A stretch of DNA of 64,000 bases, taken from Trypanosoma brucei. Lineage: Eukaryota. Position numbers and translations under genes: made by a program. Below the pieces are notes generated by a model that was not told the origin of the DNA, ran no database searches, and saw nothing but the letters and a program-made list of their open reading frames with translations. The stretch's first letter is position 1; the number at the start of each line of letters is the position of its first letter. Below are positions 3,901-49,969 of this stretch, one piece after another. The DNA lies in contig CH464491.1 of assembly GCA_000002445.1 (NCBI GenBank), positions 1,792,001 through 1,856,000 of the forward strand, given 5' to 3'.

Positions 3901-4632
3901 AACATCGATCGCCAATAACACAAATAACAACAACAATAACAATAACAATAGCAACAACAGTACATATTGGTGCCAATATAATGATGATGCGGACGGAGTA
4001 AAAGCTCTACAAAGAGAAAAAAAAAGAGAAAAAAGCGAGGGCTGCAAAGAAGTATTACTCGTTGTTTTATTCTTCGGCTCGGTTCGCTCATACACGCCAC
4101 ACACACAAAAAAAAACGCGTGACCACACGCGTTCACGCAATTTTCTCTGCACACTTATCCGCCAACCTCAACCACCCACCTCCTCATCTATCTTGTACGG
4201 GTATTTCCCCCGCTCACCTATTTCTTAGCTTGTTTGGATTTCACGTTTATTATTATTATTATTATTGTTACTTACCTTGCCTCTCACGAAATTAGACGCA
4301 ACGAAGGGGAAACTTCAGCCTCCTTCTTCATTCACGTTTCGAAGTCGTTGGGGAGGAGTGTCTCTCGGATGCAGAAAAAAAAATAATAATAAATGGAAAG
4401 CATGGCAACCCGGAGGTCCCCATCACCCCAACAACTGTCCTAAGTCGTACTGCATAAAAATAAACTTAGGGCGAGAAAAAGCATGGGACATTGAAGGTCG
4501 CAGTAGCAGACCCCGTCCAGAGGAGTTCCTAAAGCGATCACACACTTGTGAACAACTGGTGCAATCGGCAGTTGACTGATACGGAGTACTTGAGACCATG
4601 CGTTTGGTATACCTTCAATTACGGGTATACAC

Positions 4633-4846: not shown

Positions 4847-6172
4847 CTACCACCTATTAGGGAGAGCGGGCCCTCCCATATATCCACCAGAGTTACGTTG
4901 CCCAAACATCTGATTGACGCCACCATCGGCGCCTCCCATCGGGCGGCCAGCCGAAAAACCTCCCATATGTGGACCACCCCTCATCGCATTCCCGCGACCC
5001 ATGTGAGGAGGGACATCCACTCCGCGGTCGCCAAAATTCTGATTGCGCTGCATTAGGTAATGACCACCACTGTAGTAATGATTGTGATCATACGGCGGCA
5101 CCATTACGCCAGCGTTGGGAGTCCAATGGTCGTTACGCCCGCGGCCGCCCCACGGCATGCCGTCTTGCGTTCCCGTTTGATACGTGTAGTTGTTGCCAAC
5201 ATGCTGCGGAGGTTGCGGTGGTGGTGGTAGTTGGGTTTGCGAGGTCACTGGAAGTGAACTGGGAGCCTGGCGGAGCGGTGCGGGTTGCTGCTGTATCATT
5301 TGTTGTTGTTGTTGCTGTTGTTGTTGCTGCTGCAATTGCTGCTGCTGCTCCACCAGCCTGCTGCGTTCCCTCTGAAGACCATCACTTTGGTCGTTCAGCT
5401 GCCGTTCTTGGGCGAGCAGGCGAGCATGCTTTTCATTCATCTCAATTTCCCGCTGTTTGCGGCACTCTTCAAACAAATGACGCTCATTGTAAAGGTTAGC
5501 GCGTCCCTTTTCCAACTCAGCCATCGCGGAGTCAATTCGCTGGTGACTAGCCGGTGCCTCAAACACTACACGGGGTCCCTTCGAGTGTGCCTCAACGACT
5601 TCAGCTGGGTATGTTACAATGTAGGTTACTGGTTTGGCCTGTGGGGGTACCACAGGGTGTTGCGGGGTTATGTCGCTGGAAAAAGTGTAGTCATCATCGT
5701 TTGCCCAACTAAAGTTACCGTTGCTCTCCGGTAGTGTGACGGTAGGCTGTGGTTTAGGAGGTTGTTGGGGCTTGGGTGTCGGAGTAGGTTGCTTTTCCAC
5801 TACAGGAGATTCTTCTACCGGTGTGGGGGGAATCTCCACCGGTGCGACTACAGCTTCTACGGTAGGTTCCTCCGCTACAGGAACTTCGGGTTCCGGCACC
5901 GCTACCTCCGGCGGCTCGGGCGTACGTGGCTTTTCCACGCGGACAGTTTGCTTCGTCACGTTGGTGCGTAGCGCCTCCAGAAAAGTTTTCCCGGATGAGG
6001 TCTTTGATGCATTTGTGATCTGTGCCTTAATTGTTGGGCCAGCGGGAACCACGACATCATCCGCTTTGTTTTCCTCGCGCTTCGGCCGGCCGGTCTCGTT
6101 GCTGGGGCGGCTGTCCAGCTTGTGGTTGCCGTTCACATTGGCGTGTTGTTTCGGATTGTTTTTTGGAGGCAT
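4847..6172 (-). CDS. Hypothetical low-complexity protein: PEVK-like P/E/V-rich segment, poly-Q tract, Gly/Met/Arg-rich C-terminus
   Basis: 441-aa ORF. The PEPPEVAVPEPEVPVAEEPTVEAVVAPVEIPP segment is PEVK-like. A Q(13) run is encoded by the CAG/CAA repeat at ~5285-5345 (seen as CTG/TTG on the plus strand). C-terminal GGxMG / RG repeats. Coding-like complexity in the central part (LFEECRKQREIEMNEKHARLLAQERQL). Confidence 0.6.
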   Translation of the reverse strand: MPPKNNPKQHANVNGNHKLDSRPSNETGRPKREENKADDVVVPAGPTIKAQITNASKTSSGKTFLEALRTNVTKQTVRVEKPRTPEPPEVAVPEPEVPVAEEPTVEAVVAPVEIPPTPVEESPVVEKQPTPTPKPQQPPKPQPTVTLPESNGNFSWANDDDYTFSSDITPQHPVVPPQAKPVTYIVTYPAEVVEAHSKGPRVVFEAPASHQRIDSAMAELEKGRANLYNERHLFEECRKQREIEMNEKHARLLAQERQLNDQSDGLQRERSRLVEQQQQLQQQQQQQQQQQMIQQQPAPLRQAPSSLPVTSQTQLPPPPQPPQHVGNNYTYQTGTQDGMPWGGRGRNDHWTPNAGVMVPPYDHNHYYSGGHYLMQRNQNFGDRGVDVPPHMGRGNAMRGGPHMGGFSAGRPMGGADGGVNQMFGQRNSGGYMGGPALPNRW

Positions 6173-16995: not shown

Positions 16996-17472
16996 TGCAC
17001 GGGGGAATCAGAGGCCCTCCTAAAGAAAAAAGCAATAGCCCGTTGGCCGCAAGAACAAAAGAACAGAGAAGGAAAGGGAAAAGGAAGAAAAAAAGAAGTT
17101 GAACAGTGATAATGAGTGTTTTGCAGCCCGTGCAGGCGAATGCAGCGTTCGTCTCTCGTACTGATGTCCGGGTCCACCTTACCGTCTAAGTGAAGTGAGA
17201 TGGACTGCGGAGTACGACGCCTTGGCAGGTAGATATAAAGTGAAAATAAAATGCTGTTGCCAGAAGAAATTAAGCCGAGAGAAAAAATTTTATCTGTTTG
17301 GTGGGCATCGCTCTCCTTATTGGTCTCCCCCCGGCGTTTCGCATCCCGCTGTTTTGCCCTTGCCAAATAGACATGGCGAGAGCGCCACAGAAAAGATGTG
17401 AAGATATGCACAAAGGGGTGATCCTTTGGGAAACCTCAAATAAATGATGGTTCAGGTCCAACCTAAAAAGCA

Positions 17473-18063
17473 TCACTTCCGTTGAGGTGCAGCTTTCCCG
17501 CTACGACCCTGAGGTGCCCTCCTGTCACCGCCGCGCTGCTGCTGCTGCTGCTGCCGTTGTTGTTGTTGCTGCTGCGGTTTCTGCCTCTGTTGACCCTGGC
17601 GTTGACGGTTGCCCTCCTCAGTTCTGGCGGGCCTCCCTCCCTGTCGTTGTGCCTGCTGTGGACGGCCAGTGGGCTTCTGTGCAGCTCCACGCTGGGCAGC
17701 ACCCTTAGTTTGACCAGCCGCGTTACGGCCACCCTTCTGCTGAGTGCGGGCACCTGAGGCAACCTTCAGGTTCTTGGTTTTCTTGGCGCGAGGTTTCTTG
17801 CCAGTCTTGATGCGGACAATACCCTTAGCGATTGCTAGGTGATTGATGGCATGATCCGACTCACCCTGGCAGCGAAGGTAACCAGCGATGCAAAGCGTAG
17901 TCGTCGTACCATCAATCACACCGTTCGGATCGACATTTGCAATGGCAATCTGCACAGCAGAGTGATCGAACGAGGTAATGAGGCTGTTCGTCGCGTGGCA
18001 TTTGCGCGGAATGTACAGGTCCACGTTCACGCCTTCCTCATTGTAGGTCCCGATGGTCGCCAT
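17473..18063 (-). CDS. RPS21: 40S ribosomal protein S21e, copy 1 (with long basic Gln-rich C-terminal extension)
   Basis: The N-terminal ~85 aa align with eukaryotic S21e (VDLYIPRKC...AS/N...IA..NV...G; GESDHAINHLAIAKGIV vs GESDDSILRLAKADGIV). It is followed by a K/R/Q-rich tail. Confidence 0.85.
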   Translation of the reverse strand: MATIGTYNEEGVNVDLYIPRKCHATNSLITSFDHSAVQIAIANVDPNGVIDGTTTTLCIAGYLRCQGESDHAINHLAIAKGIVRIKTGKKPRAKKTKNLKVASGARTQQKGGRNAAGQTKGAAQRGAAQKPTGRPQQAQRQGGRPARTEEGNRQRQGQQRQKPQQQQQQRQQQQQQRGGDRRAPQGRSGKAAPQRK

Positions 18064-18099
18064 AGTGGTCGTGCTTGAGCGGAGGAGAGTATGTCACCT

Positions 18100-18200
18100 T
18101 TTGAAAAGAAACGCACGCGAAAAGCAGAAGGAGAGAAGAGAAAAAGGGGGCCGTTGAAGAGGAAGCTTGAAGGGGAGACACCACAAAAACTTCACCGGAT
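18100..18200 (-). promoter_or_regulatory. Pyrimidine-rich (minus-strand) spacer between the two S21e copies; candidate polyY/splice-acceptor region for copy 1 and polyadenylation region for copy 2
   Basis: The plus strand is purine-rich (gaaaagaaacgcacgcgaaaagcagaaggagagaagagaaaaaggggg), so the minus strand is a CT-rich tract immediately 5' of copy 1. Confidence 0.35.
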
Positions 18201-18334
18201 CTTTCAACTGCTAATGAAACACGCGGCACTGCTAACTAAAATATGCATTAAGAAAAAAAAGAGAAAAACCTCCTTCCACACGACTTCGACAAAGTTCCGA
18301 TAAGTCAAACGCGCTCCAGCCTCAAATCAACAGT

Positions 18335-18919
18335 CTAAGAGCGAGGGCCGCGCCTACCGCTCTGCTGAGGTGCCCTCCTGTCACCGCCGCGCTGCTGCTG
18401 CTGCTGCTGCCGTTGTTGTTGTTGCTGCTGCGGTTTCTGCCTCTGTTGACCCTGGCGTTGACGGTTGCCCTCCTCAGTTCTGGCGGGCCTCCCTCCCTGT
18501 CGTTGTGCCTGCTGTGGACGGCCAGTGGGCTTCTGTGCAGCTCCACGCTGGGCAGCACCCTTAGTTTGACCAGCCGCGTTACGGCCACCCTTCTGCTGAG
18601 TGCGGGCACCTGAGGCAACCTTCAGGTTCTTGGTTTTCTTGGCGCGAGGTTTCTTGCCAGTCTTGATGCGGACAATACCCTTAGCGATTGCTAGGTGATT
18701 GATGGCATGATCCGACTCACCCTGGCAGCGAAGGTAACCAGCGATGCAAAGCGTAGTCGTCGTACCATCAATCACACCGTTCGGATCGACATTTGCAATG
18801 GCAATCTGCACAGCAGAGTGATCGAACGAGGTAATGAGGCTGTTCGTCGCGTGGCATTTGCGCGGAATGTACAGGTCCACGTTCACGCCTTCCTCATTGT
18901 AGGTCCCGATGGTCGCCAT
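18335..18919 (-). CDS. RPS21: 40S ribosomal protein S21e, copy 2 (tandem duplicate)
   Basis: The protein is identical to copy 1 except for the last few C-terminal residues. The nucleotide sequence is identical at an offset of 856 bp. Confidence 0.85.
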   Translation of the reverse strand: MATIGTYNEEGVNVDLYIPRKCHATNSLITSFDHSAVQIAIANVDPNGVIDGTTTTLCIAGYLRCQGESDHAINHLAIAKGIVRIKTGKKPRAKKTKNLKVASGARTQQKGGRNAAGQTKGAAQRGAAQKPTGRPQQAQRQGGRPARTEEGNRQRQGQQRQKPQQQQQQRQQQQQQRGGDRRAPQQSGRRGPRS

Positions 18920-19310
18920 GGCGAAGTGTGAAAAAAGCGTCTTAAAAGGATGAAAAATACGGGACAGTGTTACAGTATATTGACCAAGTGCACTAACTCT
19001 GGCAAAGAGTCTCGCGGTAAGTGAAGCAACTATGAGTAAATTTCAGTTGTGGGTAATAATGAAACACTCGCAACAACTTGTTCCCAAAACCAGAATACGT
19101 AGGAGAGGAGGTGTCGCGAGTTGTGCAAATGGACATAGTTCCTCGATGGAACTCAGTTGTGGGAAGTCGGGAACCGACGCCTGCACGGGGAAAACGATGA
19201 CGAACATAGCGATATCATAAGTTCCCGCTAACGTTGTTTCACGAAAGCAACGAGGTGAAGGAAACACGTATCCCTTTCACCCCTGTGGTTTTTGCCTTGT
19301 GGAATAAAGC

Positions 19311-19871
19311 TCACTCTTTCTTGACCTCATCGAATGAGAACTGCCCGAGAAGGGCTTCAACCGATTCCGTTTCCTCTGGGTGTGGTCTGGTGGGCGCCTG
19401 CGGTTGTTGAGAAAAAAAATACTCCAAGGGGGGAACATTTTCCCCGAAACCGTCGGCGCACGCGGGGGGTGGGACTGACGTCGGTGCTGTTGAAGGGACT
19501 GCCGGGTTCTCGAAATCAGCAGCACCAGTTCTGTCACCAGCGTGTGGTGGCGAGTCAAGAACCGTATTGCCGACGTGCTCCGGTATGTCGTCTAAGCCCA
19601 TCTCCGCAGCTACAGACAGTAGTAGTTGTACTCGCTTTTGGTACACCTCCATTCGTTGTCTTACTTGAAAAAGAAAAAAGCGATCTTTATCATTGTCACT
19701 TTCTGGGCTAACATCTTTGCATATATTCGTGATGATCTCCATTGCGGCAATGTAATTCCTTGCGGCCACAAGTGGGTTTCCATCAGGAGTTTCCTCTGCG
19801 CGGGCACGGTAGATAAGGCCACTCGCTTCTTCGATCCGCTTTTCTAAAGTCGTCATTGTGACGAGGCACAA
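19311..19871 (-). CDS. Hypothetical protein with N-terminal MIT-like (microtubule interacting and trafficking) three-helix domain
   Basis: 186 aa. LEKRIEEASGLIYRARAEE...GNPLVAARNYIAAMEIITNI...DRFFLFQVRQRMEVYQKRVQLL follows the MIT helix pattern seen in Vps4/spastin N-termini. The C-terminal half is P/A-rich and disordered. Confidence 0.5.
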   Translation of the reverse strand: MCLVTMTTLEKRIEEASGLIYRARAEETPDGNPLVAARNYIAAMEIITNICKDVSPESDNDKDRFFLFQVRQRMEVYQKRVQLLLSVAAEMGLDDIPEHVGNTVLDSPPHAGDRTGAADFENPAVPSTAPTSVPPPACADGFGENVPPLEYFFSQQPQAPTRPHPEETESVEALLGQFSFDEVKKE

Positions 19872-20686
19872 CTATTTACTTGACAACCAGTGGCGAGAAT
19901 AAGGAAACAACGGGCAAGGCGTAAAGATTTTTATACATGAAGCTGCAAGCATAAATATTTTTTCTGTTGATTTGGCCGCATGTGCCCCTTCCCACCCTCT
20001 CTCCTCGAAGACACAGAACGCTTTGACAGGTACACAGTGAGAGACCGCAACGCAGAACACGAAGAACTAACGTGAGGGAATAAGAAAGGAAAACAAAGAC
20101 GGAATGCCCCGCCGATGATAACATTTGACAGGAAAATAGGCCACATGTGCAAGGGTGAATATGAAAAAACGCAAAGGCGGATGAAGTCACATTCATTCTT
20201 CCCCCCAACACAATTTCTCCTCTTCTCGACCGCATTATTGCATTCCTTGCAGTATGCCGCTGCCATCGCAGCGAAGATATCGCGTCCAACACAAAAATAT
20301 ATATATTTCATTATATATGTAATACATCTGGTACAAGCGGCTGCAGCACAACGGGAATACGGAAAACCGGAAGGTATCACGAAAGGCGTCAGTGGCAGGA
20401 AATAAATCACAAAAACAAACTATTTACATGACAAAAATAAAGCAAAATAAGAAAACAAGATAAAACGATGCCCTCACCACACACAAACACACAAACTTTG
20501 CCACCATACCCAAGACCACGTATCGATACACCGCTCAGGCAGTTGCACAACGGTGATGCGATACAAAAACTTTGCCGGACTCGTCTACAACAGATCGGTG
20601 AAAGCCTCAAGGCACACACACGTCCACACAAGCGGATAGTGTTAACTAATGTTTGTTTCTCCCCTCCGCGGGAGCGGGATCAGCGT

Positions 20687-36974: not shown

Positions 36975-38540
36975 CTACAATTTTCGGAAGTACTCGGTAA
37001 GTAAGGCAGGGCCGAAGCCTGTTGCCCCATTGCTGTTAAACACTGGGTACGCCAAATCCACGTGGATGTGCGCGCCAGTGAATTTCGGGCTCAAATGGGT
37101 AGTAATGAAGTAACCAGCACATGAAACACCAGCATTGTCACGTCTCTCCATCAAGTTGGTCATGTCGGCATGATTGCTCTTGAACTCGGGCTCGTGATAT
37201 TCCGGGCAGTAAAGCACCGGGAAGCATGTCTCCCCTGACTCCCGTCCCGCCCGCAACATTGCAGCTTCAGCCCCCTCCTCGTTGACGTACAATCCCGCAT
37301 GGTGGCGACCAGTGGCAATACCTTGTGCTCCCGTAAGAGTTGCCATATCGATGACAACATCTGGGGTAAAGGACAACTCATTCGTCGCGTGGAAAACACC
37401 ATCGCCGAGCACAATGCGGCCCTCTGCGTCAGTGTTGATTACCTCCACCGTCTTGCCAGACTTCATAACGATGATGTCGTCGTTTCTGTAGCTCTTAGGA
37501 CCAATGGCGTTCTCCGCGAGGCACAATGTGCAACTGAGCTGCACTGGCTGCTGAAGCCGCACAGCTGTCAGAAAACCGCAAAACACGGCTGCCGCTCCAC
37601 CCATATCATGCTTCATCAATTTCATGTAGTCGGCCGGCTTGAGCGCGAGACCGCCACAATCATACACGATGCCCTTGCCGACGAGGGACACCTTTTTGAC
37701 GGGAGTGCCCTTCGGTGTGTACAACAGCGTTACGAGACGAGGAGCCTCAAAAGCAGCCTTTCCCACACTGTATATGCCTCCGTAGCCGCGCTCACACAAA
37801 TCGTCACCACAAATGACGTCCACATCGAAGCCAAGCGCCTTTGCGTAGCCTTGCGCAATTTCTGTGAAGGTTGCAGTGGTTAGCAGGTTGGGAGGCGCGT
37901 CAACAAGACGCTGGCAGAGTTGCGTCGAAGTGGCAACCGCCTCCAAGTCCTTTGGCGGGATCGCGGGCGGCTCCGGGAACACCACCTGCAACCGGCTGAC
38001 CTTACCACTGTTGTAAGCCGCCGCTGCCGCACCATCCTTTGCGGAGAAGTTGTGCTTTCCACAGCGTGCTACAGCAGCAGCGATGGGAAGGACAGCATTG
38101 GAAAGCACAAAGACATCCACCGTTGCATTAGGCTCTTTAACTTCGTCCAATGCAGCAGTTACAAGTGCAGTCACAACATCCGGTCGGGCAGGGCAGTTGT
38201 TGCGAGATGCCTTCGTGGGCACCTCACCAACGACAACGCGCACGAACTTTGAGCCTGCCGCATTCGCAAGTCCCTCCACCAAAACGCCGTACGTCCCACC
38301 TTCCTTCACCCGCTCAATAGCTTCAGCAACAGCGGGATTGTAAAATGGTAAACGCTGGACGGCGGGGTCACGGAGTTGCTTGTGAGTTCCAACAAGAACA
38401 GCGAGTCCTGAGGACAGTACACCCTTCTGGTTGCTTTCGTAGGCGGTGACATCGGTGAAGCAAACATTGGTTTTGTATTCGACGCACGACTGGACGAACG
38501 CAGAAAGCTCTTTTGCTTCGGCCTTGGGTAAAGTAGGCAT
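36975..38540 (-). CDS. M17 family leucyl aminopeptidase
   Basis: 521 aa. Carries the M17 signature NTDAEGRIVL, the VGKGIVYDCGGLALKPADYMKLMKHDMGGAAAV Zn-site region, and the HIHVDLAYP C-terminal motif. Confidence 0.9.
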   Translation of the reverse strand: MPTLPKAEAKELSAFVQSCVEYKTNVCFTDVTAYESNQKGVLSSGLAVLVGTHKQLRDPAVQRLPFYNPAVAEAIERVKEGGTYGVLVEGLANAAGSKFVRVVVGEVPTKASRNNCPARPDVVTALVTAALDEVKEPNATVDVFVLSNAVLPIAAAVARCGKHNFSAKDGAAAAAYNSGKVSRLQVVFPEPPAIPPKDLEAVATSTQLCQRLVDAPPNLLTTATFTEIAQGYAKALGFDVDVICGDDLCERGYGGIYSVGKAAFEAPRLVTLLYTPKGTPVKKVSLVGKGIVYDCGGLALKPADYMKLMKHDMGGAAAVFCGFLTAVRLQQPVQLSCTLCLAENAIGPKSYRNDDIIVMKSGKTVEVINTDAEGRIVLGDGVFHATNELSFTPDVVIDMATLTGAQGIATGRHHAGLYVNEEGAEAAMLRAGRESGETCFPVLYCPEYHEPEFKSNHADMTNLMERRDNAGVSCAGYFITTHLSPKFTGAHIHVDLAYPVFNSNGATGFGPALLTEYFRKL

Positions 38541-38916
38541 GGGACTTTCCTTCTTATTTATTGACTTGTTTTGCGTGCGTTTCTTTCCTCCCTCCCTTTG
38601 TGCTTCAGGTCCCCTTATGCACCTTATCTCTTATTGTTGTTGCTACACTCCCTTTTTAACAAATTCCTGCTAACGTAAGTCCCAAGCAAGAAATATTGCA
38701 CTTCTGTCAACTGATATGTACTTCGGTTGTTAGCAACTCAATGGCGATATACCGGTGAAGTTCGAACGTACTCCTTTCAAAAAAAAAAGTCGAGATTTGC
38801 TTTTCCATGGCAAGAAGAAAAAAAAGGAGAAAATAGAGGCGCAGGAGTGACCGCATATTGGTATCAAGGGTGTGAGAGCCTTGGTATCTGTCAAGTTTAA
38901 GAATTTTTTTGCCTTT

Positions 38917-38945
38917 CAAAAAAAAAAAAAGACAAAGACAAAGTT
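38917..38945 (-). promoter_or_regulatory. Polypyrimidine tract on the coding (minus) strand upstream of the leucyl-aminopeptidase gene; candidate trans-splicing signal
   Basis: The plus strand reads caaaaaaaaaaaaagacaaagacaaag, which is ctttgtctttgtcttttttttttttg on the minus strand. AG dinucleotides follow on the minus strand before the ATG at 38540. The tract is ~400 nt upstream, so closer tracts may be used instead. Confidence 0.3.
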
Positions 38946-41900
38946 ACCCCATTTCTTCCGTCAACGCAACAGTGGAAGCGTAGAAACAGAGAAAGGGACA
39001 AAGAAACATTAAAAACAGCAGTAAGGGTGATAATGATAATAATAATAATAATAAAAGTACGACCTGTCTCCTGATTTAGCACTTGTTTGGCCCGTAAATT
39101 TTATCCATCCTGCGGGCGACTTGTCATTACCGCCTCCCCCCCCCCCGCCCCTCCTCAGGTAATAATCCGCTGATTCGCTTCTTCAACTTACCTTTCCTTT
39201 ACCCTTACTTTCCACATCTTCTTTTTCCCCCTTTTTAAAAAAATCTCTCTTACTTTTCCTTTTTCCCTTTTCTGTTCCTTTTGATTCAATTTTCCCCAAT
39301 AGTTCTCTTCTTCTCTCTCCTTACATTATTTTTCTTCCTTAGGTTTCATTTTTGACATATTTCCCCCATTCCCAGCACCCATACATCTACAACCCCCTCC
39401 AAATGTTGCAACAGCAAAACGGAATAGGGAAGAAGGTGGAGACAGGACAGGAGAAAAGAAAAAAAGAAAGAAAGAACCAACGTCTAATTCGGATATTCAA
39501 TTAGAGAAGAGGGAATAAACTTACGCATATATATATATATATATATATATATTTCCCCTCCACCCTTTCAACTGTAGGATATATATAAAAAAAAGTAATT
39601 GATTGCTAATGCTACTATCATTATTATTAGAAAAAATGACAATAATAGTGATAATAGCAATAACAATTATTATAATAACAGGAATAGCAGTTACATATAT
39701 ATAGTTTTAATATAGATATAAACAGCACGAAACGCCGTGAGTAGTAGTAGTAGTAGTATTCCACCGGCAACTTGTGTAAGTCCAAGTGCACGTGCAGAAA
39801 AGTGAGTGCATATTTTTTTTTTAATTAGAAGTGCTTGGTTGTTTGTTTGTTATTAATGATAATTGAATGGAAAGGGGGAGAAATGAATTTAAATTAGCGT
39901 AGATATTTTTATGTTCGTAAAATAAAGGAAGAAAAAAAACAGTAATTGTGGTCACAAAGACAGCAACTGTGGCAGAATAATATGGAAGGTCTAAATGAAC
40001 GAGAAAAAAAAAACACCGCTGGAGTATCAGAAGAATGTCCCGACACCTTCAGAAACAAAAAACAAAAGTGGGTGAAAAATGATTTCTCATCATTATCAAT
40101 ATATATATATAATACATACATGTTTATATGCATGTATGTATATCATACCCCTACGGGGTCAAAAAATGATTGTAAACATAGCTTAAAACGTTTCAACTGG
40201 ATAAAGAAAGTAAATAACATAAGCGGCGACAACAACTAAAAAGAGAAAAAAAAGGTTATGAAACATGCAAAGAAAAAATAGTAGTAACAATAACAATAAT
40301 AAGAGTAATAGTAATGGCAGTAGTAACAATAATAATAAAAATAAGATAGCGAAATTGGCAGAAGCAACACTTCCTTCCACCCACCACAGACGCCACGCAA
40401 AGAAACAAACAAACAAACTAACACGTAAACGCAAACATGCACGCATATACATATATACATATGTGCATACATTCATTCCTTTTTGTAGCCAATCCCTCAT
40501 TCAATATCTCTGAAAGCTGCAATAATCATTGTAGTAATTCTTATCACAACAGTTCCTGCTTATGTTCCTGTTGTTGTTTTAACAGAAGGGGACAAGAAAA
40601 GGAAAAGGAGAAGCGAATGGGAAACCCTTTTGCCCTTAACCCCTTTTCGTTTCTTCCCCTTTTTTGTTTTGTTTTGTCTTGTTGTTTTTCATTTTTTATT
40701 TTTTTTTCTTTTTGTGATTCTCCCTTAGCTTTTCACTTCTGGACACCCACAGCGCCACGCCTCGATGAGCCAAATCGCTCAGTTGGAGCGGGTAAACGAA
40801 ACAAAACAAGCAAACAAATACAGAGTAAGCAGTAATTTAAAAAAGGGGCTCCAAACAGGCACAAGTATGAACTGTACGCTCACACGCGCAGCAGTTCATC
40901 TCTCACACATGTTAACAAACAAGACATGCTATCACCGAAAATAAGCAGAAATAAGCAGAGTGAAAACAAAAAAAACGAAATAAACGAAATAAAAACAAAA
41001 CGCAACCGGACGCATGCATATACAAACAAAAATGTATACACGTACATACGCACGTGCATACATAAATATATATGTAATTTTTGTGATATATTTATAACAT
41101 ATATATATATAGATAGATAGATAAATTTATCAAGAGGTGTGAAAGGGACAAAAAGAGAGAATTGGAAGCATATGTCATCAACTACATATCATCTGTCACC
41201 GGCCGACACAACAAGCCGCAGTAAACACAACAGCGGGGAAAGGAAAATACACAAATGCGTATACAAGTAAAATAATCAAATTATATACCTGCATTTGTAC
41301 GTGTTTGTGTTTACATCTTTCATTTCCCTCTTCTTGTATTTTCTTTTCTTTTCTTCTCTTCTTTCATTACTTTCTTATTTCATTTTTCAGCCCATTCAAA
41401 ACCAATTTTGGAAATTTTAAGTGAATGGGCTTTCCTCTTTTTCTTTTTCGTTTTTTTTTGTTTTCAGCACAAAATTTCCTTCTTTCCCCCCTCCGTCCTG
41501 CTGCCGCTGTCGCCCCTTTCAGCTTCAAACTCATTGTTACAAAAAGCAACATCCCGCTTCTTTTCGCCATGATATGTGTTGTAGGCATTCAAATACGGTA
41601 CATTTTTCTTTCATACACTCATCTCCTCACCTGCAAACTTTTCCCTATTATTTTTGTTTTGTTTTTGTTTTATTCTTCTTCCTTCCTTCCTTTCTTCCTT
41701 TTCCCCCTTCATCTCTCTCTCTCTCCTTATCCACCCCATTTTTTTTCTGTTTCCATCATCACTACTTTTCATTATATTTTATTAAAATAAAATATAACGC
41801 AGATCTTACTCATTTCCTCTTTTGTTTCTTTCCCCTTCCTTTTGTATTCTTTTTTTTTTCATGAACTTCTCCACAGCTCTTTTGTCATCTCCCTTCTTTG

Positions 41901-42047
41901 TTCTTTTTGTTTTATTTTTGAGACATGACCGAATAATCTCCGCTGAATGAAAGGAGGAGAGGGGGAAAAAAAAAACTCACACGCTCCATCATGCATTCAA
42001 CGTTTTCCTTTTCTTTTTTTTCGTTTCTTCTTTTTTTTTTTAATTTA

Positions 42048-42049
<2 letters not shown>

Positions 42050-42078
<29 letters not shown>
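42050..42078. repeat. (AT)n microsatellite; a similar one sits at ~39527-39552
   Basis: Direct read: atatatatatatatatatatatatatatt. Confidence 0.9.
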
Positions 42079-42080
<2 letters not shown>

Positions 42081-45000
42081 CTTTTTTATTACCAATTAGA
42101 ACTATTATTAATATCATTATTTTGCTCCCTTTCTCTTCATCTTTTTTTCTTTTTTCTTCTTCCTTCTTTTTCTTAATGTCCTCCGAGAGGGGGGGGGGTA
42201 AAAAAAAAATGACAAAAAAAAACACACGCCAAATGAAAGAAGAAGAAGAAGGGAAAAAAAAAAAACAGACGCATGCGCATGTTTTTGTTAAGATTCAAAA
42301 ACAATTCTACACCTTCTATTGCGCCGCCACGACACCCTCACCACAACCACCACCATATTTTGAAAAATAAAAGACAAAAACCAAAAAAGAAAAAGGGAGA
42401 AAAAACAAAAGCTCTGAGAAAATCATTAAAGTCACACGTGGAAAGTTAACAAAAATAATAATATAAGTAAGAAAAAGAAGGAAGGAAAGGAGAAAAAGAA
42501 AGGCGGCATATGATACGAAACATCGATTACATTTATTTTATAAAATACCCACTTTGGTAGGAGGGGAGAAAAAATATATATATACACACACACCTCCGCT
42601 AAATTCTCTCTATTTCTTCTTTTCTTTTTTCTTTTCCGTGGGTGTGTTGTTGTTTTTGCTTTTTCTCTTTTTTTTGAAAAAAAATTACGTTTTTTTTTTT
42701 CCACGGGGATCAAATTCTTTCCTTCCGTCAAATCTCCCACACCCGCCCTTGTCAAATTTTTATTTATTTATTTATTTTTCTTTCATTTTGTAATTCCTTC
42801 CTTCCTTCTTTCGTTTCTTTTTCTTTTTCTCTTTTCTTTTGAAAACTTTACTTTTTATTTCCTTTCACCCCGAGTTGGTTGTAAAATTGTTGTTGGTGGT
42901 GGGTGGGAGCAGAAAAGCAGCAAAATGAGGGGGAAAAACAAAAAAAAAGGTGGTGAGCGCATGAGCAAAATAAGACGTGAAATAAAAAAACAAAAGTATT
43001 TATTTAGTATTTATTTTATTTTATCTTTTTTCACTCACCCTCCCAAATTGTATTTGCTACGCTCTCATCAGATACCCGTTACAACAACCACAAAAAGAAG
43101 AAAAAAGGAAAAAAAGAAAAGGAAAAAAAAAGAATGACGAAGCAAGCAGAACGACAACAACAACAATAACGGTGGTATAAATTTAGAAGGCAAAAGTCAA
43201 AAGAGTACAATAATAATATTATTAGTAACAGTAAAGAAAGCGAGTTCGTTTATTAGCTTTTTTAAAACAAAAAAAACAAAAAAAAAGCGTTTTGAACTTA
43301 TTTACATCACGTTCTGGAATAATCTCTTTTTCCTCCTTCCTCTTTCCTTTCTCACGATCCTCGAACCGAACAATAGCCGAACGACGCCACTTTTTTATAT
43401 TTTCTTTCTCTTTTCGCGGATAGAAGTTTGAACGCATAATAACCGTAAAAAAAAAAAAAAATCATGCATGTATTCATATTCTTACCGTCTATTTATATCT
43501 CTTTATACCTCTCCCTTTTTTATTCTCTCTTTCTTTCTCTTTCTCTCTCTTACACACACACACACACATATACATACACATACACATATAGACAGTTTCT
43601 AGATTTAATTGAGAGCACCAGTGACGGAAATGTAAACTTAATATTGTAGGGAAAAAGAAAAAAGGAAACAAAAAAGGACACAAAACACATTCTCCAGTGC
43701 TCTGCAAAAAAGAAAAAAGAAATTAACGGATACAAGAGGGTGTGCAAAGGGGATGGGGAAAAAAAAAGGAAATATATAATAAAACATATAAGAAAACATG
43801 TTCATATATAAAACATACACGTATATCTCTGTGTATATTTTATTTTCATGCATTATATTCCCCATTCATTCATTATTTGTTTTAGTTTCCTCCCCCTCCC
43901 CTTTTTTTATTTTATTTTATTCCGTGTGTGTGCATGCGTGTGTGTGTGCATGCGTGTGTGTGTGCATGCGTGTGCGTATATCTGAATTTGTGGTTTTATA
44001 CTCTCTTCCTTTCCATTATTTCATTTGTACGCAATCAAAAATGTTTCAACAATCGCACATGTTTCATCTTATACGTATTCCTTTTCTTTTCCAGTTTCTT
44101 TACTCATTTAGTTATCCATCCACTTATTCATTCATTATTGATGTGTACATTTTATATGGAGCTTCCTTTAGGGTAATGGAGGGAAACACGTCATTTCCCC
44201 TTTTTTTCTTTTTTTTTAAAAAAAACAAAACAAAACAAAAAGACATAAACATGAAAGCATTAAAACATGTAAAAAAGGGGGAAAAAAAAGCAAAATGAGT
44301 GCTTGGAAGGATGTAAGGAAAATGTGTAAGTTTGTGGGGTGGGGGGTGGGGTGGGGGGGAAAAAAAGACGCGCAAGTGGGTGCACAATAATAAATACTGG
44401 TAAGAAGAAAAAAGAAAAAGAAATAAAAGTCAACAAATATATATATATATATAATTACATATAATTATATATATAATGCAGAGAGTAAACTTAATGCACC
44501 TCACTTGCTTCCCCCTTTCCAGTTAATGCTGCACGCACTTCCTTCACAGCACCGCCACCCCACCTCCTCCTCCTCCCCCCCTCCCCCTTTTCTTTAAAAA
44601 AAGATAAAAACTTTAGATTTTTTTTTTTATTCGTCTCTTTTCTTTATTCCAAAACGGGATATTTTTGATTTGTCAGGCACATCATCCGCAAAATATTTTC
44701 ATCACATGTCTTCTCTTCTCTCTTTTGTTTTTATTTTTTATTTTTTATTTTCTTCTTTTCTTTTCATTTCGTTCATTCACATTAACTTCCCGCCACTGTT
44801 TCTGGAGACGCGTTATGAAAAAAAGAGTTTGAAACCACCGACACAAACAAACACAGCGCACACACACGCAGAAAAGAAAAGAAAACATCCACCAGGTAAA
44901 TAAATAAACAAAATGAATGAATGAAAGCAATAAATGAAAGCAATAAATAAAAAGGGAAGTGAGAGAAATGATGGAGAGAAAGCAAAAAAAAAAAAAGAAG

Positions 45001-48000
45001 AGAAAGATATAAATGTGTAAGAACGAATGCATTTGAGTTTCATAAGCATGCCAAAAGGAACTCAAGACGCCGGCTTTTACCTCTTTTTTTTAATTATTAT
45101 TATTATTACACATGCACACACACACACACACACCACACACGAGCACACGAATTATATATATATATATATATAATTCATGAACAAGAAAGAAAAAAAAGAA
45201 AGAATTGGAAGAGGAAGAGGAAGAAGAAGAAGAAGCATAAAAGGAATAAAAGATAAAACGAAAAAAAAAGAGATGTAAATAACTACTATAACCATAATGG
45301 AAAAGCAGTATAATGAAATTATATCACCAGTAAAATTATAATAATATTATCATTATTATTAATAACAATCAACAACAAAAATAATGTAAAGACCTTTTTA
45401 AAAAAAGGAAAAGGAAAGGAAAAGGGGGAAAAAACGAGAAACGGCGCGTGTCAAAGCATAATAGAAACAAACGAAACCGATTGCCAAAGGATAGATGTAT
45501 AAGCACACAATAACAAAAAGTACCAATCACACATATGAAAAAAGTAAAAAAAACAAAGGCTCTGTAAAAACCCGATCAAAACGCCCAAAAGAAAAAAAGA
45601 AAACAACTGAAATATAGCCCATTAATCAAGATGAAGAGTATAAGGTGAAGGGGGGACAAAAAAAAAACAACGATCAACCAACAAGAAAGGGAGAGTAAAA
45701 AAAAAAAAAAGGCAAAAAAAGGAATAAGCAAAAACGGACTTGCGCTTGTGGATGATTCCCTTTCTTTTATGAGTATAACGTGAAAAGTATATATGAAAGC
45801 ATCCTTTGGATAATACGCATCCGTTAAACAACAAAACAGAAAAAGAAAAAGAAAAAAAATGCACTCTTTCAACGTGGTACAACACAGAGACCAAAAAAAG
45901 AAAACGTAATCACTCAACCCCGCAAGCACCTCTGAAAGCAAAACAAAAATGAGTTTTAATTCGCTTCCACCAACGTTTTCCTCTTTTTTTCTGTCTCTTT
46001 TCTTTTCTCCTTTTTTTTTTCTTTATGTCTCCTCTTGTTGTTTTGATCAAACCCCTTCAGAGTAGCGCTCATTCAATCATTTTTTTCTTTCCTTTTTTTT
46101 TCGGTTCTTGTTTAACCTCCTCCTGCACAATTTTTTTCTTTTTTGCGGTGCCCCTTTAGTGTCACCCAAGCCATCGAGAAAACATAAAAAGAAAAGCATA
46201 AATAAACGTAAAACACAAAAAAAAAAACAAAAAAGAAAAGAAAAGACAATACAACAAGAAAAACAAGACAATCAATTGGATGAAAAAAGAAAAAGAAAAA
46301 GGGAGGGGGGAAAACACAGAAGCAACACGACACCAAGAAAAAAAAAAGACCAAAAAAAAACTAAGCAGCAGGAATGCGGCTCAGTAACGAAAATATATAA
46401 ATGAAAAAGGAAACCAAGAAAAAAAAAAAGAAGGAAGAGGAGGAGGGATGTGGGGAAGGAGTATTAATATACAGCGGTGCAAAATATTTTAGCCTCCTCC
46501 GTAATCGCCACCACCGCCACCGCCATCATAATTTTCACATCCTCCTCCGAGTCACAAGTGTGCGCGGGATGAACCTCGCAAAAAGAAGAAAAAACATAAA
46601 CGACAAAAAAAAAAAAAATAGAGAATTGTAAAATGCCGCTTTCATCGCCTCCATTTTTGGTGCCATCATTTCGAACCTGCACCTTACCAACGTCTCTTCC
46701 CTGGAAAATAAACTTTTTTTATTTTGAGTTTTTAATCATGTCACGTTTCCTCTCATTTCTTTCCGTCACATCATACATTCGAGATAATATCTCAAAATGT
46801 CTCTCCTTTTTTTTTTACTTCTACAGGTCAGCAGCGGCAAGTTGAAAGGAAACGGGAAAAGCATCACATAAAAAAAAAACACAACGACCTCTACCTCCCG
46901 CTAAATATCAATAGCTTCCGTTCCCTTTTTCATTCTTTATTTTCTCTTTTACATTTTTGTTTCTTCGTGTTCCTTCTTCTACCGTCCCCCTCCCTCACTA
47001 ACTCATTTATTCATTCATTATGCCTCATTTCAGCTGCACTCGTATGGAATGCACGTTAAAAAAAAAAGGATCAGAGAAAGGAAATATTGAACGCTGTCAC
47101 AGAGTCTTCATGTCCATCCACAGTGATACGAACGAAGGTGTTCAAAAAACAAAAAACAAAAACAAAAACAAGGGCAGTTGGGGCAACGCTGCGGTCGCAA
47201 ACGTAAAGAGTAAACAAACACGTCAGACAGTGACAGTAAGCACAACAAACAATCAAACAAAGGCTCGACAGCTAAGAAGACAACGCGAGAGGAGGAAAAT
47301 CAGCAAACAAAGGGGGGAAACATATAGAAAAGTGGGTAAAGTACGAAATTGAGTGGGGCTACAAACAACAAAAGACGTATCGGATGGCGTAGGAATAATA
47401 GTGATACAAAAAAGAAAAAGAAGAAAAGAGGGAGTAACATCGGAATGCAGAAATAAAGAAGGAGTAACACGTACTCCCCCCAACTTTCTCACTGGAGTCA
47501 CTCTTCCACGTGGTTATTTTCATTTCCCTCTAAATCCACCTCTTCTCCTCCTCCACTCCGCAAGGGAAGACAAGTTCCATATATTTTACAGATATTTTCC
47601 TACGAAACGCAAAAAAAAAACCTTCCGCTCCTTTCCCTGACCCCCCCCCAAAAGGTGCAACGCGTTATACTTCGCTTCCCTTCCATTCATATACGTACAC
47701 ATATAAATATTCGATTAAATAAACATATACAAATGTGGATATATGAGCATATATATGTATATGAATGTTCGTATTCAATTGTATGCGTGTATTTTGCCGC
47801 GGTCTGCGCCAAATGGGAAGGAGGAAAAAAATAAAAGCAAAAAACAAAAACAAACAGCACAAAATGAAATAAGATAATACGAACAGAAAAAAGAACGCGG
47901 GAAGACACCGTTCCGCTGGTCAAGGCAGGGTTAGGCCCCCTTATTTACCTCAACATCTTTCGACGGACATTATTTACGTTCATTTCCAACTATTACCTTC

Positions 48001-48376
48001 ACGTCAAAAGGAAACTGGTGTCCACTACATTTGTTGCATCCCCATCCTTTTCACCTTTTTTTCTGCCATTGATTCGTTTAACCTCGTTCCCCATCCGGGG
48101 AGGTCGCACAACTCGAGGCATACGTCAGATGTTCTGTTTATTTCCCCCTCACTTCTCTTCTTTCCCCTTCTCTGCACAAAAACAAGGGAACGGGAGAAGC
48201 ACTTCACCCATTTATTATCCCTCTTATTGGTTTAAAGTCGAAACAAAACAACGTCCCGCTGGCTCCTCCACTCCACGACATGATGCCCCACACGGGGAAT
48301 CCGATGAAAACAAAACGGAACACAACACCAAAGCAAAAGGAGCAAAATAGCGTTCACTCCGGTCAGGGGTTCGGTC

Positions 48377-49969
48377 TCAAGCACTTATGCCACACCTCCC
48401 AAACTCAGCGGCGGTGGGCACTGCAGTACGGCTACGTCGATCTACCGTCATCATGGGTTCACTGCAATCGAAAGAATCGGGAACAGTTGGCGGTCTGGGA
48501 GGAGGGTTCAATTCACCGCGGCTTAGCTCGACGATGAGCGGCATGCACGGCAGCCCATCAGTCTCTGAGTGGCGTGTTTGCTGCGGCAGATTGCGGACGC
48601 GCTCGCAGTACTTTCTTAAGTGAGAATATTGCTCCCTGTCGGCAGCGTACCAGAAACCGTGTCTGTCCATGAGTACGCGGCAGCGCACTTGGTAGATAAG
48701 TGTCCATATGTCTTTCGTCCTCACACGTGCAATAAACGATGTCTCGGAGCGCCACTCAACGCTTTCAGCGACCGCCATGCCATCACCACACACCACCTCT
48801 AGAACGCGATTGAGAACAACAACGGCGCGCTGACGTAGCTCGCACGGAAACATCTGAAAAAAGACAAGCAGGGTCCGCCCCGCATCCTCCTTCGAGACGG
48901 TGTCGGTTTGCCCGTAGCGGGAAATTGTATTCGAGATGTTGTAAGAGTGGTACAAGCAAAATCCCTGAAGTGTTCCATGAACGTTGACGCTGGAGCGTTG
49001 GTGGCCGGCTGCTGCTTTGCGCCCACTCTGCTGCACCTGGTGTGAGTCGTAACTGGGTGGACTCCCCACACCTGCAGCAGCGCAGGCAGCGGCGAGGGGC
49101 GAGCTATTCATTGGTGTGCTGGGTTGCAGGAGCCCATTCCCCAACGGGCTTGAAGAAGATACAGACACGGGGAAGCACGTGACGGTGGGGGAAAAGGGTG
49201 CAGCAGAGTTGGGGCCCGGAGTCACCGCAGTGAGCTGATCGCCCATCACGGTGCCAAACGTTTGCTGCGCTGGCGTCATTGGCACATATGTCATGCCCCC
49301 ACAAACATCCATGGAAAGCTGCGGCTGCGCGACAACGTAGTGTGGAACGCCACCGGGAGCGGGGCAAGAACCCTGAACATACAGCGTATGAGGAGTGTTA
49401 GGCTGGGTAACCATTACAAAGTTGCTATTCCCCTGTGATGCCACGAAGGTGGAAAGTCCCACTGGCAGCGAAGGTGGGGTTGATCGCTGAAACGACACGC
49501 CATTACCCTCACTCACGCCCGGTGAAATGACGGGTGTGCTTATAGACAGGAACGGCGAAGCGGTCATCGCACCGGCGTACGGGGAATACGTCATGGAACT
49601 TTTAGTGGGGGAACTTGCAGAAGAACCCCCAAACGAAGGCGGTACTGAGTGAACATTTGACTCCATCAGCGGCGAATATCCACGGGTCTTCATGGAGAGA
49701 GGATCGCTTCCATCCTGCAGCATGTTGTGGCAAACTTCATCGCACCCAGGTTGTCGAGCTGTGCTTATGAAAAGATGCGGCGGAGCCCTTCGCATGCCAG
49801 GGGCGGCGTTGTCGTTTCTCATATCAGAGGGACCGGTCAGCATTCGATCGGTGATTGATTCGGAGGGTGGCCCTGAAAGCCATACGCCATGAGAGATCCA
49901 CCCATCACAGGGCTGGCCAGCAGCGTTGTCGAGCGAATGCTCGGTTAAGGCTGGGTTTCTGGGATCCAT
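48377..49969 (-). CDS. Hypothetical protein: Ser/Pro/Thr-rich disordered N-terminal two-thirds plus conserved-looking ~150-aa C-terminal globular domain (weakly RRM-like)
   Basis: 530-aa ORF. The C-terminal GRTLLVFFQMFPCELRQRAVVVLNRVLEVVCGDGMAVAESVEW...IWTLIYQVRCRVLMDRHGFWYA has alternating beta/alpha-like complexity. The N-terminus is disordered (SSASSPTKSSMTYSPYAGAMTASP...). Confidence 0.6.
   Translation of the reverse strand: MDPRNPALTEHSLDNAAGQPCDGWISHGVWLSGPPSESITDRMLTGPSDMRNDNAAPGMRRAPPHLFISTARQPGCDEVCHNMLQDGSDPLSMKTRGYSPLMESNVHSVPPSFGGSSASSPTKSSMTYSPYAGAMTASPFLSISTPVISPGVSEGNGVSFQRSTPPSLPVGLSTFVASQGNSNFVMVTQPNTPHTLYVQGSCPAPGGVPHYVVAQPQLSMDVCGGMTYVPMTPAQQTFGTVMGDQLTAVTPGPNSAAPFSPTVTCFPVSVSSSSPLGNGLLQPSTPMNSSPLAAACAAAGVGSPPSYDSHQVQQSGRKAAAGHQRSSVNVHGTLQGFCLYHSYNISNTISRYGQTDTVSKEDAGRTLLVFFQMFPCELRQRAVVVLNRVLEVVCGDGMAVAESVEWRSETSFIARVRTKDIWTLIYQVRCRVLMDRHGFWYAADREQYSHLRKYCERVRNLPQQTRHSETDGLPCMPLIVELSRGELNPPPRPPTVPDSFDCSEPMMTVDRRSRTAVPTAAEFGRCGISA

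Follow-up and report, generated by a model that had tools for sequence, protein, structure and literature searches.

How a trypanosome comes to keep almost 10 kb of DNA free of genes inside a run of co-directional genes, and what this DNA may do for the gene that precedes it, is the question raised by a locus of Trypanosoma brucei. The locus lies within a window of 64,000 nucleotides (nt), that is, the whole stretch of DNA analysed here (contig CH464491.1, positions 1,792,001 to 1,856,000), which exact protein look-ups place on chromosome 11 of T. brucei brucei TREU927. The minus strand carries all sizeable open reading frames (ORFs) of the window, and transcription proceeds from high to low coordinates, in agreement with the original prediction made for this DNA. 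Within this run, a gene-free, AT-rich and low-complexity "desert" (38541-48376, minus strand) separates the coding sequence (CDS) of HYP1 (48377-49969, minus strand; 530 aa) from that of an M17 aminopeptidase (36975-38540, minus strand). In other words, the interval is non-coding, lies on the same strand as HYP1 and directly 3′ of it, and holds no gene between HYP1 and the splice acceptor region of the M17 gene. The reading that we favour, with confidence that is about evenly balanced, is that the interval is a very long, polypyrimidine-rich 3′ untranslated region (UTR) or processing region of HYP1.

Both flanking genes can be named precisely. HYP1 is Tb927.11.6600, the old Tb11.02.4450 (ID mapping). 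The aminopeptidase gene, assigned to M17 by Pfam and by the structures PDB 4EFD and 5NSK, is Tb927.11.6590, as a published 277-nt 3′UTR sequence of this gene maps exactly after the M17 stop codon. The bounds of the interval are likewise exact, with the 5′ side of the M17 CDS ending at 38540 and the 3′ end of the HYP1 CDS starting at 48377.

HYP1 and the long 3′UTRs of trypanosome regulators

HYP1, a regulator of mRNA fate, came from an RNA interference (RNAi) screen for stumpy induction. It is required for stumpy formation in response to quorum sensing and is a validated component of this pathway, by which slender, proliferative trypanosomes become stumpy and transmissible. When tethered, HYP1 lowers mRNA expression; moreover, the protein localises to starvation stress granules and partly moves to the nucleus following a splicing block. 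The screen, the tethering repression and the stress-granule localisation bear out the earlier proposal that the gene upstream of the interval is a regulator. The protein has an S/P/T-rich N-terminus and a conserved C-terminal domain with a predicted RRM-like fold, and no Pfam domain was matched over its 530 aa. Its mRNA is strongly enriched in bloodstream forms, in which it is more abundant than in procyclic forms and exceeds the level in salivary-gland parasites 856-fold.

In trypanosomes, genes are co-transcribed, and the next splice signal downstream determines where an mRNA is polyadenylated. 3′UTRs of at least 5 kb exist, and the longest belong to mRNAs of RNA-binding proteins and kinases. 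For example, the 3′UTR of RBP10 (Tb927.8.2780) measures 7.3 kb and contains at least six dispersed regulatory elements, while that of ZC3H22 exceeds 5 kb. Long 3′UTRs are rich in polypyrimidine tracts, whose use is prevented by DRBD18. Depletion of DRBD18, in fact, leads to shorter mRNAs together with spliced and polyadenylated RNAs that consist of distal UTR sequence only.

The HYP1 locus resembles those of RBP10 and ZC3H22 in having a multi-kb non-coding stretch directly 3′ of a developmental post-transcriptional regulator within a polycistronic unit, a bloodstream-enriched mRNA, internal polypyrimidine tracts and low-complexity sequence. Two hallmarks of the long-UTR class, a regulator CDS upstream and many internal polypyrimidine tracts, are thus found here. 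It differs from RBP10 in that the continuous mRNA of about 8.5 kb, the regulatory elements and the masking by DRBD18 are experimental findings for that gene, whereas the HYP1 tail is known here from sequence. At about 9.3 kb this tail would be longer still, and part of it would derive from the locus of a lost paralogue. The long HYP1 3′UTR is favoured because a regulator gene, a stage-controlled mRNA and a conserved giant spacer downstream fit the long-UTR class. An unusually long 3′UTR was among the possibilities put forward by the original prediction, and it stands in so far as the interval fits the documented pattern of regulators and a multi-kb gap recurs in four Trypanosoma lineages; one continuous RNA spanning the interval, masking at this locus and a regulatory role are what we infer beyond this.

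The following mechanism can be envisaged. RNA polymerase II would transcribe the interval, 3′ of HYP1, as part of a single polycistronic unit, and the resulting UTR would begin with a constrained core of about 1.8 kb, from 48376 to approximately 46540, and continue with a fast-evolving, polypyrimidine-rich extension of about 7.5 kb. If the internal splice signals are masked, for which the action of DRBD18 on RBP10 provides a precedent, long isoforms would keep the extension and end at approximately 39.0-39.2 kb, upstream of the M17 splice acceptor. Use of these signals would instead remove the extension at approximately 46.5-46.7 kb. The long tail may carry many redundant protein-binding elements and, simply by being so long, may hold the HYP1 mRNA at a low, stage-controlled level. 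Some of this length may go back, in salivarian trypanosomes, to the locus once occupied by the lost HYP1 paralogue.

Coding and RNA content of the interval

Analysis of the coding content confirms that the gene-free interval is real and not a chance feature. Over its 9,836 nt, the longest ORF starting with ATG measures 166 aa and is antisense, a length reached by local-composition shuffles in 6% of trials; the longest stop-free run, of 197 codons, is matched by such shuffles in 2% of trials. No Pfam domain was matched in the interval, about two-thirds of the stop-free pieces of at least 55 aa having been scanned, and when the 10 longest ORFs were looked up as exact sequences among some 15 billion proteins, not one was present. 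The interval is non-coding DNA, and the earlier description of about 9.8 kb devoid of any credible ORF is upheld by ORFs of chance length and by the lack of Pfam matches.

It would be extremely improbable, in our judgement, for the interval to consist of a hidden protein-coding gene, a snoRNA cluster, a degenerate retroposon or an assembly artefact. What speaks for a hidden gene is that four small ORFs are annotated as "genes" in the corresponding gap of T. b. gambiense DAL972 (locus L003, 13363-13878(-), 14889-15188(+), 15628-15957(-) and 18108-18500(-)). However, these encode 99-171 aa, three of the four are antisense and none has a Pfam match; in TREU927 the corresponding ORFs are split or shifted, hence not intact, and the annotation of T. 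equiperdum does not include them. Most likely they are annotation noise. Comparisons by tblastx, moreover, gave only low-complexity noise. A retroposon relic (ingi/RIME/DIRE) was rejected as there were no Pfam matches in the same two-thirds of pieces and no dispersed repeat. A centromere-type AT-rich array was also rejected, as no tandem array exceeds 57 nt and the repeat families are of low complexity only. As to the assembly, the colinear gap measures 9,818 nt in T. b. gambiense DAL972 and 9,785 nt in T. equiperdum OVI, compared with 9,836 nt in TREU927. Because three independent assemblies of the T. brucei group agree on the gap, the interval is not an assembly artefact, and the mis-joined or collapsed repeat that the original prediction had named as a danger to its interpretation is contradicted by their colinearity and similar length.

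The same prediction had considered that snoRNA or tRNA genes might reside in the interval, a proposal to which the scans lent no support. No tRNA gene was detected in the interval by ARAGORN, no Rfam family reached its gathering score in the whole window, and a scan at permissive E-value gave only far-sub-threshold "miRNA" matches on GT/TA microsatellites. The interval, in other words, matches no known RNA family or tRNA model, neither as a snoRNA cluster nor as tRNA genes. A single pair of C-box (AUGAUGA) and D-box (CUGA) motifs was noted on the sense strand at 40093 and 40030, about 64 nt apart; approximately 0.5 such pairs are expected by chance, and Rfam does not support this one. No conserved RNA structure was detected in the interval: the extremes of a structure z-score scan are (TA)n and (CA)n hairpins that score on both strands and are therefore uninformative. 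The spliced-leader sequence is absent from the window, as expected for genomic DNA.

Composition of the interval

The composition of the interval is as unusual as its length. Its GC content is 0.35 overall (0.31-0.40 along its length) compared with about 0.5 in the flanks, and it is the longest of the 15 intergenic regions of the window (9,836 nt versus a median of about 1.2 kb). Homopolymers account for 9.6% of it, the highest share of the 15 (0-5.5% in the others), and its 3-mer entropy is the lowest, so that the low-complexity saturation claimed earlier is fully borne out and no other intergenic region of the window carries a higher low-complexity load. The repeats detected by Tandem Repeats Finder (TRF) and a repeat search are all of low complexity, namely (TA)n, (CA)n/(GT)n, polypyrimidine and polypurine families, or short microsatellites; long tandem arrays and dispersed repeats are lacking. 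In its polypyrimidine tracts, homopolymers and dinucleotide repeats the interval resembles ordinary trypanosome spacers, from which it differs in being far longer and, in T. brucei, more AT-rich and more repetitive than the spacers of the window. The region 16996-20686, considered as a second long gap, is in fact occupied by a pair of S21e ribosomal protein genes and one further ORF; therefore, the interval 38541-48376 is unique in the window.

A further proposal of the original prediction was that of an internal transcription-unit boundary, where RNA polymerase II would terminate and re-initiate in a head-to-tail arrangement of termination and start sites. The unusual non-coding length is the only feature in its favour, together with short GT/G-rich runs at 43924-43974 and 44334-44358, which are, however, antisense. 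There is no strand switch and there are no tRNA or snRNA genes, which are frequent markers of such boundaries, and nothing in the sequence indicates a promoter. Moreover, the order and orientation from HYP1 to M17 are kept in all trypanosomes examined, as well as in a compact outgroup in which the genes lie close together. With neither sequence nor synteny in its support, a boundary of this kind seems very unlikely.

Processing signals and sequence variation within the interval

About 40 polypyrimidine tracts with a score of at least 14 are found on the sense strand of the interval and represent potential internal processing sites. Closest to M17, tracts at 38800-39006 (minus strand) are followed by downstream AG dinucleotides at 38955, 38913 and 38800. 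This is likely the trans-splice acceptor region of the M17 mRNA, as judged from its signals, and would set the distal polyadenylation site of the upstream RNA. At the opposite side, some 280 nt (46190-46470, minus strand) form an almost pure polypyrimidine block; with its first downstream AG at approximately 46154, this block is predicted to act as a strong alternative signal for polyadenylation and trans-splicing. A dense cluster of strong tracts (41949-42574, minus strand) lies between these two, 5.8-6.4 kb from the HYP1 stop codon.

In the three-way comparison of TREU927, gambiense and equiperdum, the interval shows 13.8 variable sites/kb. Considering the brucei-gambiense pair, substitutions amount to 12.8/kb in the interval, compared with 8.5-15.2/kb in other intergenic regions and 3.2-4.9/kb in CDS. 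The interval therefore varies at about three times the rate of CDS and like other intergenic regions, while its indels are about threefold more frequent than in other spacers. Variation is not evenly distributed, and two zones stand out; masked values are those obtained after removal of low-complexity and indel-adjacent columns before variable sites are counted. The first is a HYP1-proximal zone of about 1.8 kb and of ordinary complexity (46541-48376, minus strand), in which variable sites are few (P ~1e-6 unmasked); after masking its variation is 6.8/kb, compared with 7.0/kb in the HYP1 CDS and 15.8/kb in the mid-desert. The polypyrimidine block 46470-46190 sits exactly where this zone ends. 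The second is a polypyrimidine-poor island of higher complexity (40041-41540, minus strand), which has the lowest variation of the interval (3.1/kb masked versus 15.8/kb in the mid-desert, P = 0.008), is preceded in the direction of transcription by the tract cluster 42574-41949, and is a candidate for either an independent transcript or a conserved UTR element. The two low-variation zones are leads rather than proofs, because the counts are small.

These features can also be explained in a different way, which we hold as a tentative and less probable account. Specifically, the HYP1 3′UTR would be of ordinary size, about 1.7-1.9 kb, and would end upstream of the block 46470-46190, while the remaining 7.5 kb or so would produce one or more separate long non-coding RNAs (lncRNAs), spliced-leader-capped and polyadenylated, one of them over 40.0-41.5 kb. 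About 1,428 lncRNAs have been described in T. brucei, mostly intergenic, less GC-rich and provided with normal trans-splicing and polyadenylation signals (Guegan et al. 2022). The interval shares with this class its low coding potential, its intergenic position and a GC content below that of mRNAs. It resembles such lncRNAs, for example grumpy, located upstream of RBP7, in being intergenic, AT-richer and non-coding, having splice and polyadenylation signals and lying beside a gene for stumpy induction; it differs from them in lacking a detected embedded snoRNA and cross-species conservation. The 40 or so sense-strand tracts would offer processing sites to such transcripts, the boundary of variation coincides with the strongest tract block, and a tract cluster followed by a tract-poor, low-variation island is the layout of an independent transcript. 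On the other hand, no conserved structure and no known RNA family were detected, no sequence conservation is seen with T. vivax, T. cruzi and T. melophagium, and internal tracts are equally abundant in true long UTRs such as that of RBP10. Between these two leading explanations, we infer the long HYP1 3′UTR.

A number of observations must be set against the long HYP1 3′UTR. The distal 8 kb evolve at an intergenic, neutral-like rate with an approximately 3-fold excess of indels. The contrast between 46541-48376 and the mid-desert reaches only P = 0.07 after masking, and a low-variation zone stopping at a very strong block 1.9 kb from the stop codon is equally expected for a short UTR followed by something else. 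Polypyrimidine tracts are equally frequent on the antisense strand. The RBP10-type UA(U)6 motif is not enriched in the interval, where ARE-like elements and PUF cores likewise show no meaningful sense-strand enrichment. Finally, in the literature, with supplementary tables partly covered, no published 3′UTR length, Northern blot or map of polyadenylation or spliced-leader sites was found for Tb927.11.6600.

Conservation of length and loss of a paralogue across Trypanosoma

Comparison with other species adds an evolutionary component that the original prediction missed, as part of the gap corresponds to a lost paralogue of HYP1. A protein search confines HYP1 orthologues to Trypanosoma and identifies a paralogue family, "B", whose similarity to HYP1 is confined to the C-terminal ~200 aa. 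Both T. cruzi and T. melophagium have cytochrome b5, MCC-beta and two hypothetical genes ahead of HYP1, which is followed by a gap and then by paralogue B (17607-19367 of the T. cruzi locus, L001; 17786-19402 of the T. melophagium locus, L002). The gene-free gap 3′ of the HYP1 orthologue measures 5,824 nt in T. cruzi and 5,991 nt in T. melophagium, and the tract cluster 42574-41949 of T. brucei lies at about the distance at which the paralogue begins in the latter. In T. melophagium, paralogue B is followed by about 2.1 kb and then by M17, while the T. cruzi locus examined ends before M17; in T. rangeli a HYP1 paralogue and M17 are found on one contig. In T. vivax, whose HYP1 orthologue is 56-58% identical to the A-type orthologues, a gene-free gap of 9,262 nt is directly followed by M17, with no B gene. 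The outgroup kinetoplastid has a compact locus, with two tandem HYP1-family genes (L006, 4941-7388), a 252-aa gene and then M17; its spacers are shorter than 1.2 kb and the long gap is absent.

Taken together, the spacer between HYP1 and M17 is 5-30 times longer than its neighbours in every Trypanosoma species examined, the neighbouring intergenic regions of T. vivax, T. cruzi and T. melophagium measuring 0.3-1.3 kb. Between the HYP1 stop and the M17 start lie 9,698 nt in T. melophagium, including B; the corresponding distance in T. brucei is 9,836 nt, and that in T. vivax 9,262 nt. Comparison of the interval with the gaps of T. cruzi, T. melophagium and T. vivax by blastn and tblastx gave only scattered low-complexity matches on both strands. 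The length of the gap is conserved in the genus, whereas its sequence is not. As to composition, the gaps of T. vivax, T. cruzi and T. melophagium equal their neighbouring spacers. The T. grayi contig (L004) ends 242 nt after the HYP1 stop, and in T. congolense IL3000 (P0024, P0041) the HYP1 orthologue is partial and M17 lies on another contig, which is unplaced. Assemblies from short reads and from Sanger reads seem to break within this low-complexity sequence, a hint that the gap is long in these two species too.

Regarding the history of the paralogue, the protein search revealed no second member of the HYP1 family in T. brucei, T. congolense or T. vivax. Because the outgroup has two tandem family genes and B is absent from T. 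brucei and T. vivax, B was probably lost in the salivarian lineage; an ancestral A-B tandem followed by this loss is the simplest history. A decayed copy within the interval was searched for and rejected: tblastn with 18 family proteins gave a best E-value above 4, and two profile hidden Markov models (HMMs) run against the six-frame translation scored at most 0.5 bits, compared with 231 bits for the positive control. Elsewhere in the window, an 11-residue recurrent tblastn match (E ~4) to a conserved motif of the HYP1 family occurs at 4385-4417 (minus strand), downstream of the ORF 4847-6172, and is probably due to chance.

The loss of the paralogue raises the possibility, which we regard as improbable, that the distal part of the interval is functionless filler, in which the decayed paralogue locus and its flanking UTRs, inflated by slippage of microsatellites and homopolymers, would be passively transcribed and degraded. 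Such an origin would agree with the distribution of the paralogue, which T. cruzi and T. melophagium carry between HYP1 and M17 and which T. brucei and T. vivax lack, with the two tandem family genes of the outgroup, with the similar distance from HYP1 to M17 in species with and without the paralogue, and with the neutral-like substitution and excess indels of the distal part. However, the core genomes of trypanosomes are compact (spacers of 0.3-2 kb in the window), and about 9.3-9.8 kb have been kept in both T. vivax and T. brucei despite unalignable sequences. In addition, about 6 kb of gap are already present upstream of the paralogue in the species that keep B, and no relic of the paralogue is found at the protein level. 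Above all, filler would concern the origin of the interval and is compatible with a present function. A more functional proposal, unlikely in our opinion, is that the island 40041-41540, at the position of the paralogue, encodes an independent functional non-coding RNA that would replace the lost paralogue or act with HYP1 in stumpy differentiation, or else that the length of about 9-10 kb is itself selected as a "timer" of co-transcriptional delay or decay for HYP1.

Other genes of the window

The genes that occupy the region 16996-20686 are at 17473-18063(-), 18335-18919(-) and 19311-19856(-). The two tandem S21e proteins have 196 and 194 aa, compared with the 79 residues of the Pfam domain; being much longer than this domain, they therefore carry C-terminal extensions. 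The third ORF beside them encodes 181 aa and has no Pfam match.

Significance for gene regulation in trypanosomes

The interval 38541-48376 is most likely of a known kind, that of the long 3′UTRs of regulators. What is new is that its length is conserved, that a paralogue was lost at this locus and that two zones of low variation occur within it. If the 9.8 kb tail is the 3′UTR of HYP1, it would rank with the longest 3′UTRs of T. brucei and represent, beside RBP10, a second natural test case for how long polypyrimidine-rich UTRs escape internal processing, as well as a test case for why regulators carry long UTRs and whether length itself is selected. The maintenance of gap length from T. vivax to T. 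brucei despite unalignable sequences bears on such selection for length. In addition, the loss of the paralogue is dated to the salivarian lineage, and may bear on differences in the pathway between African and other trypanosomes.

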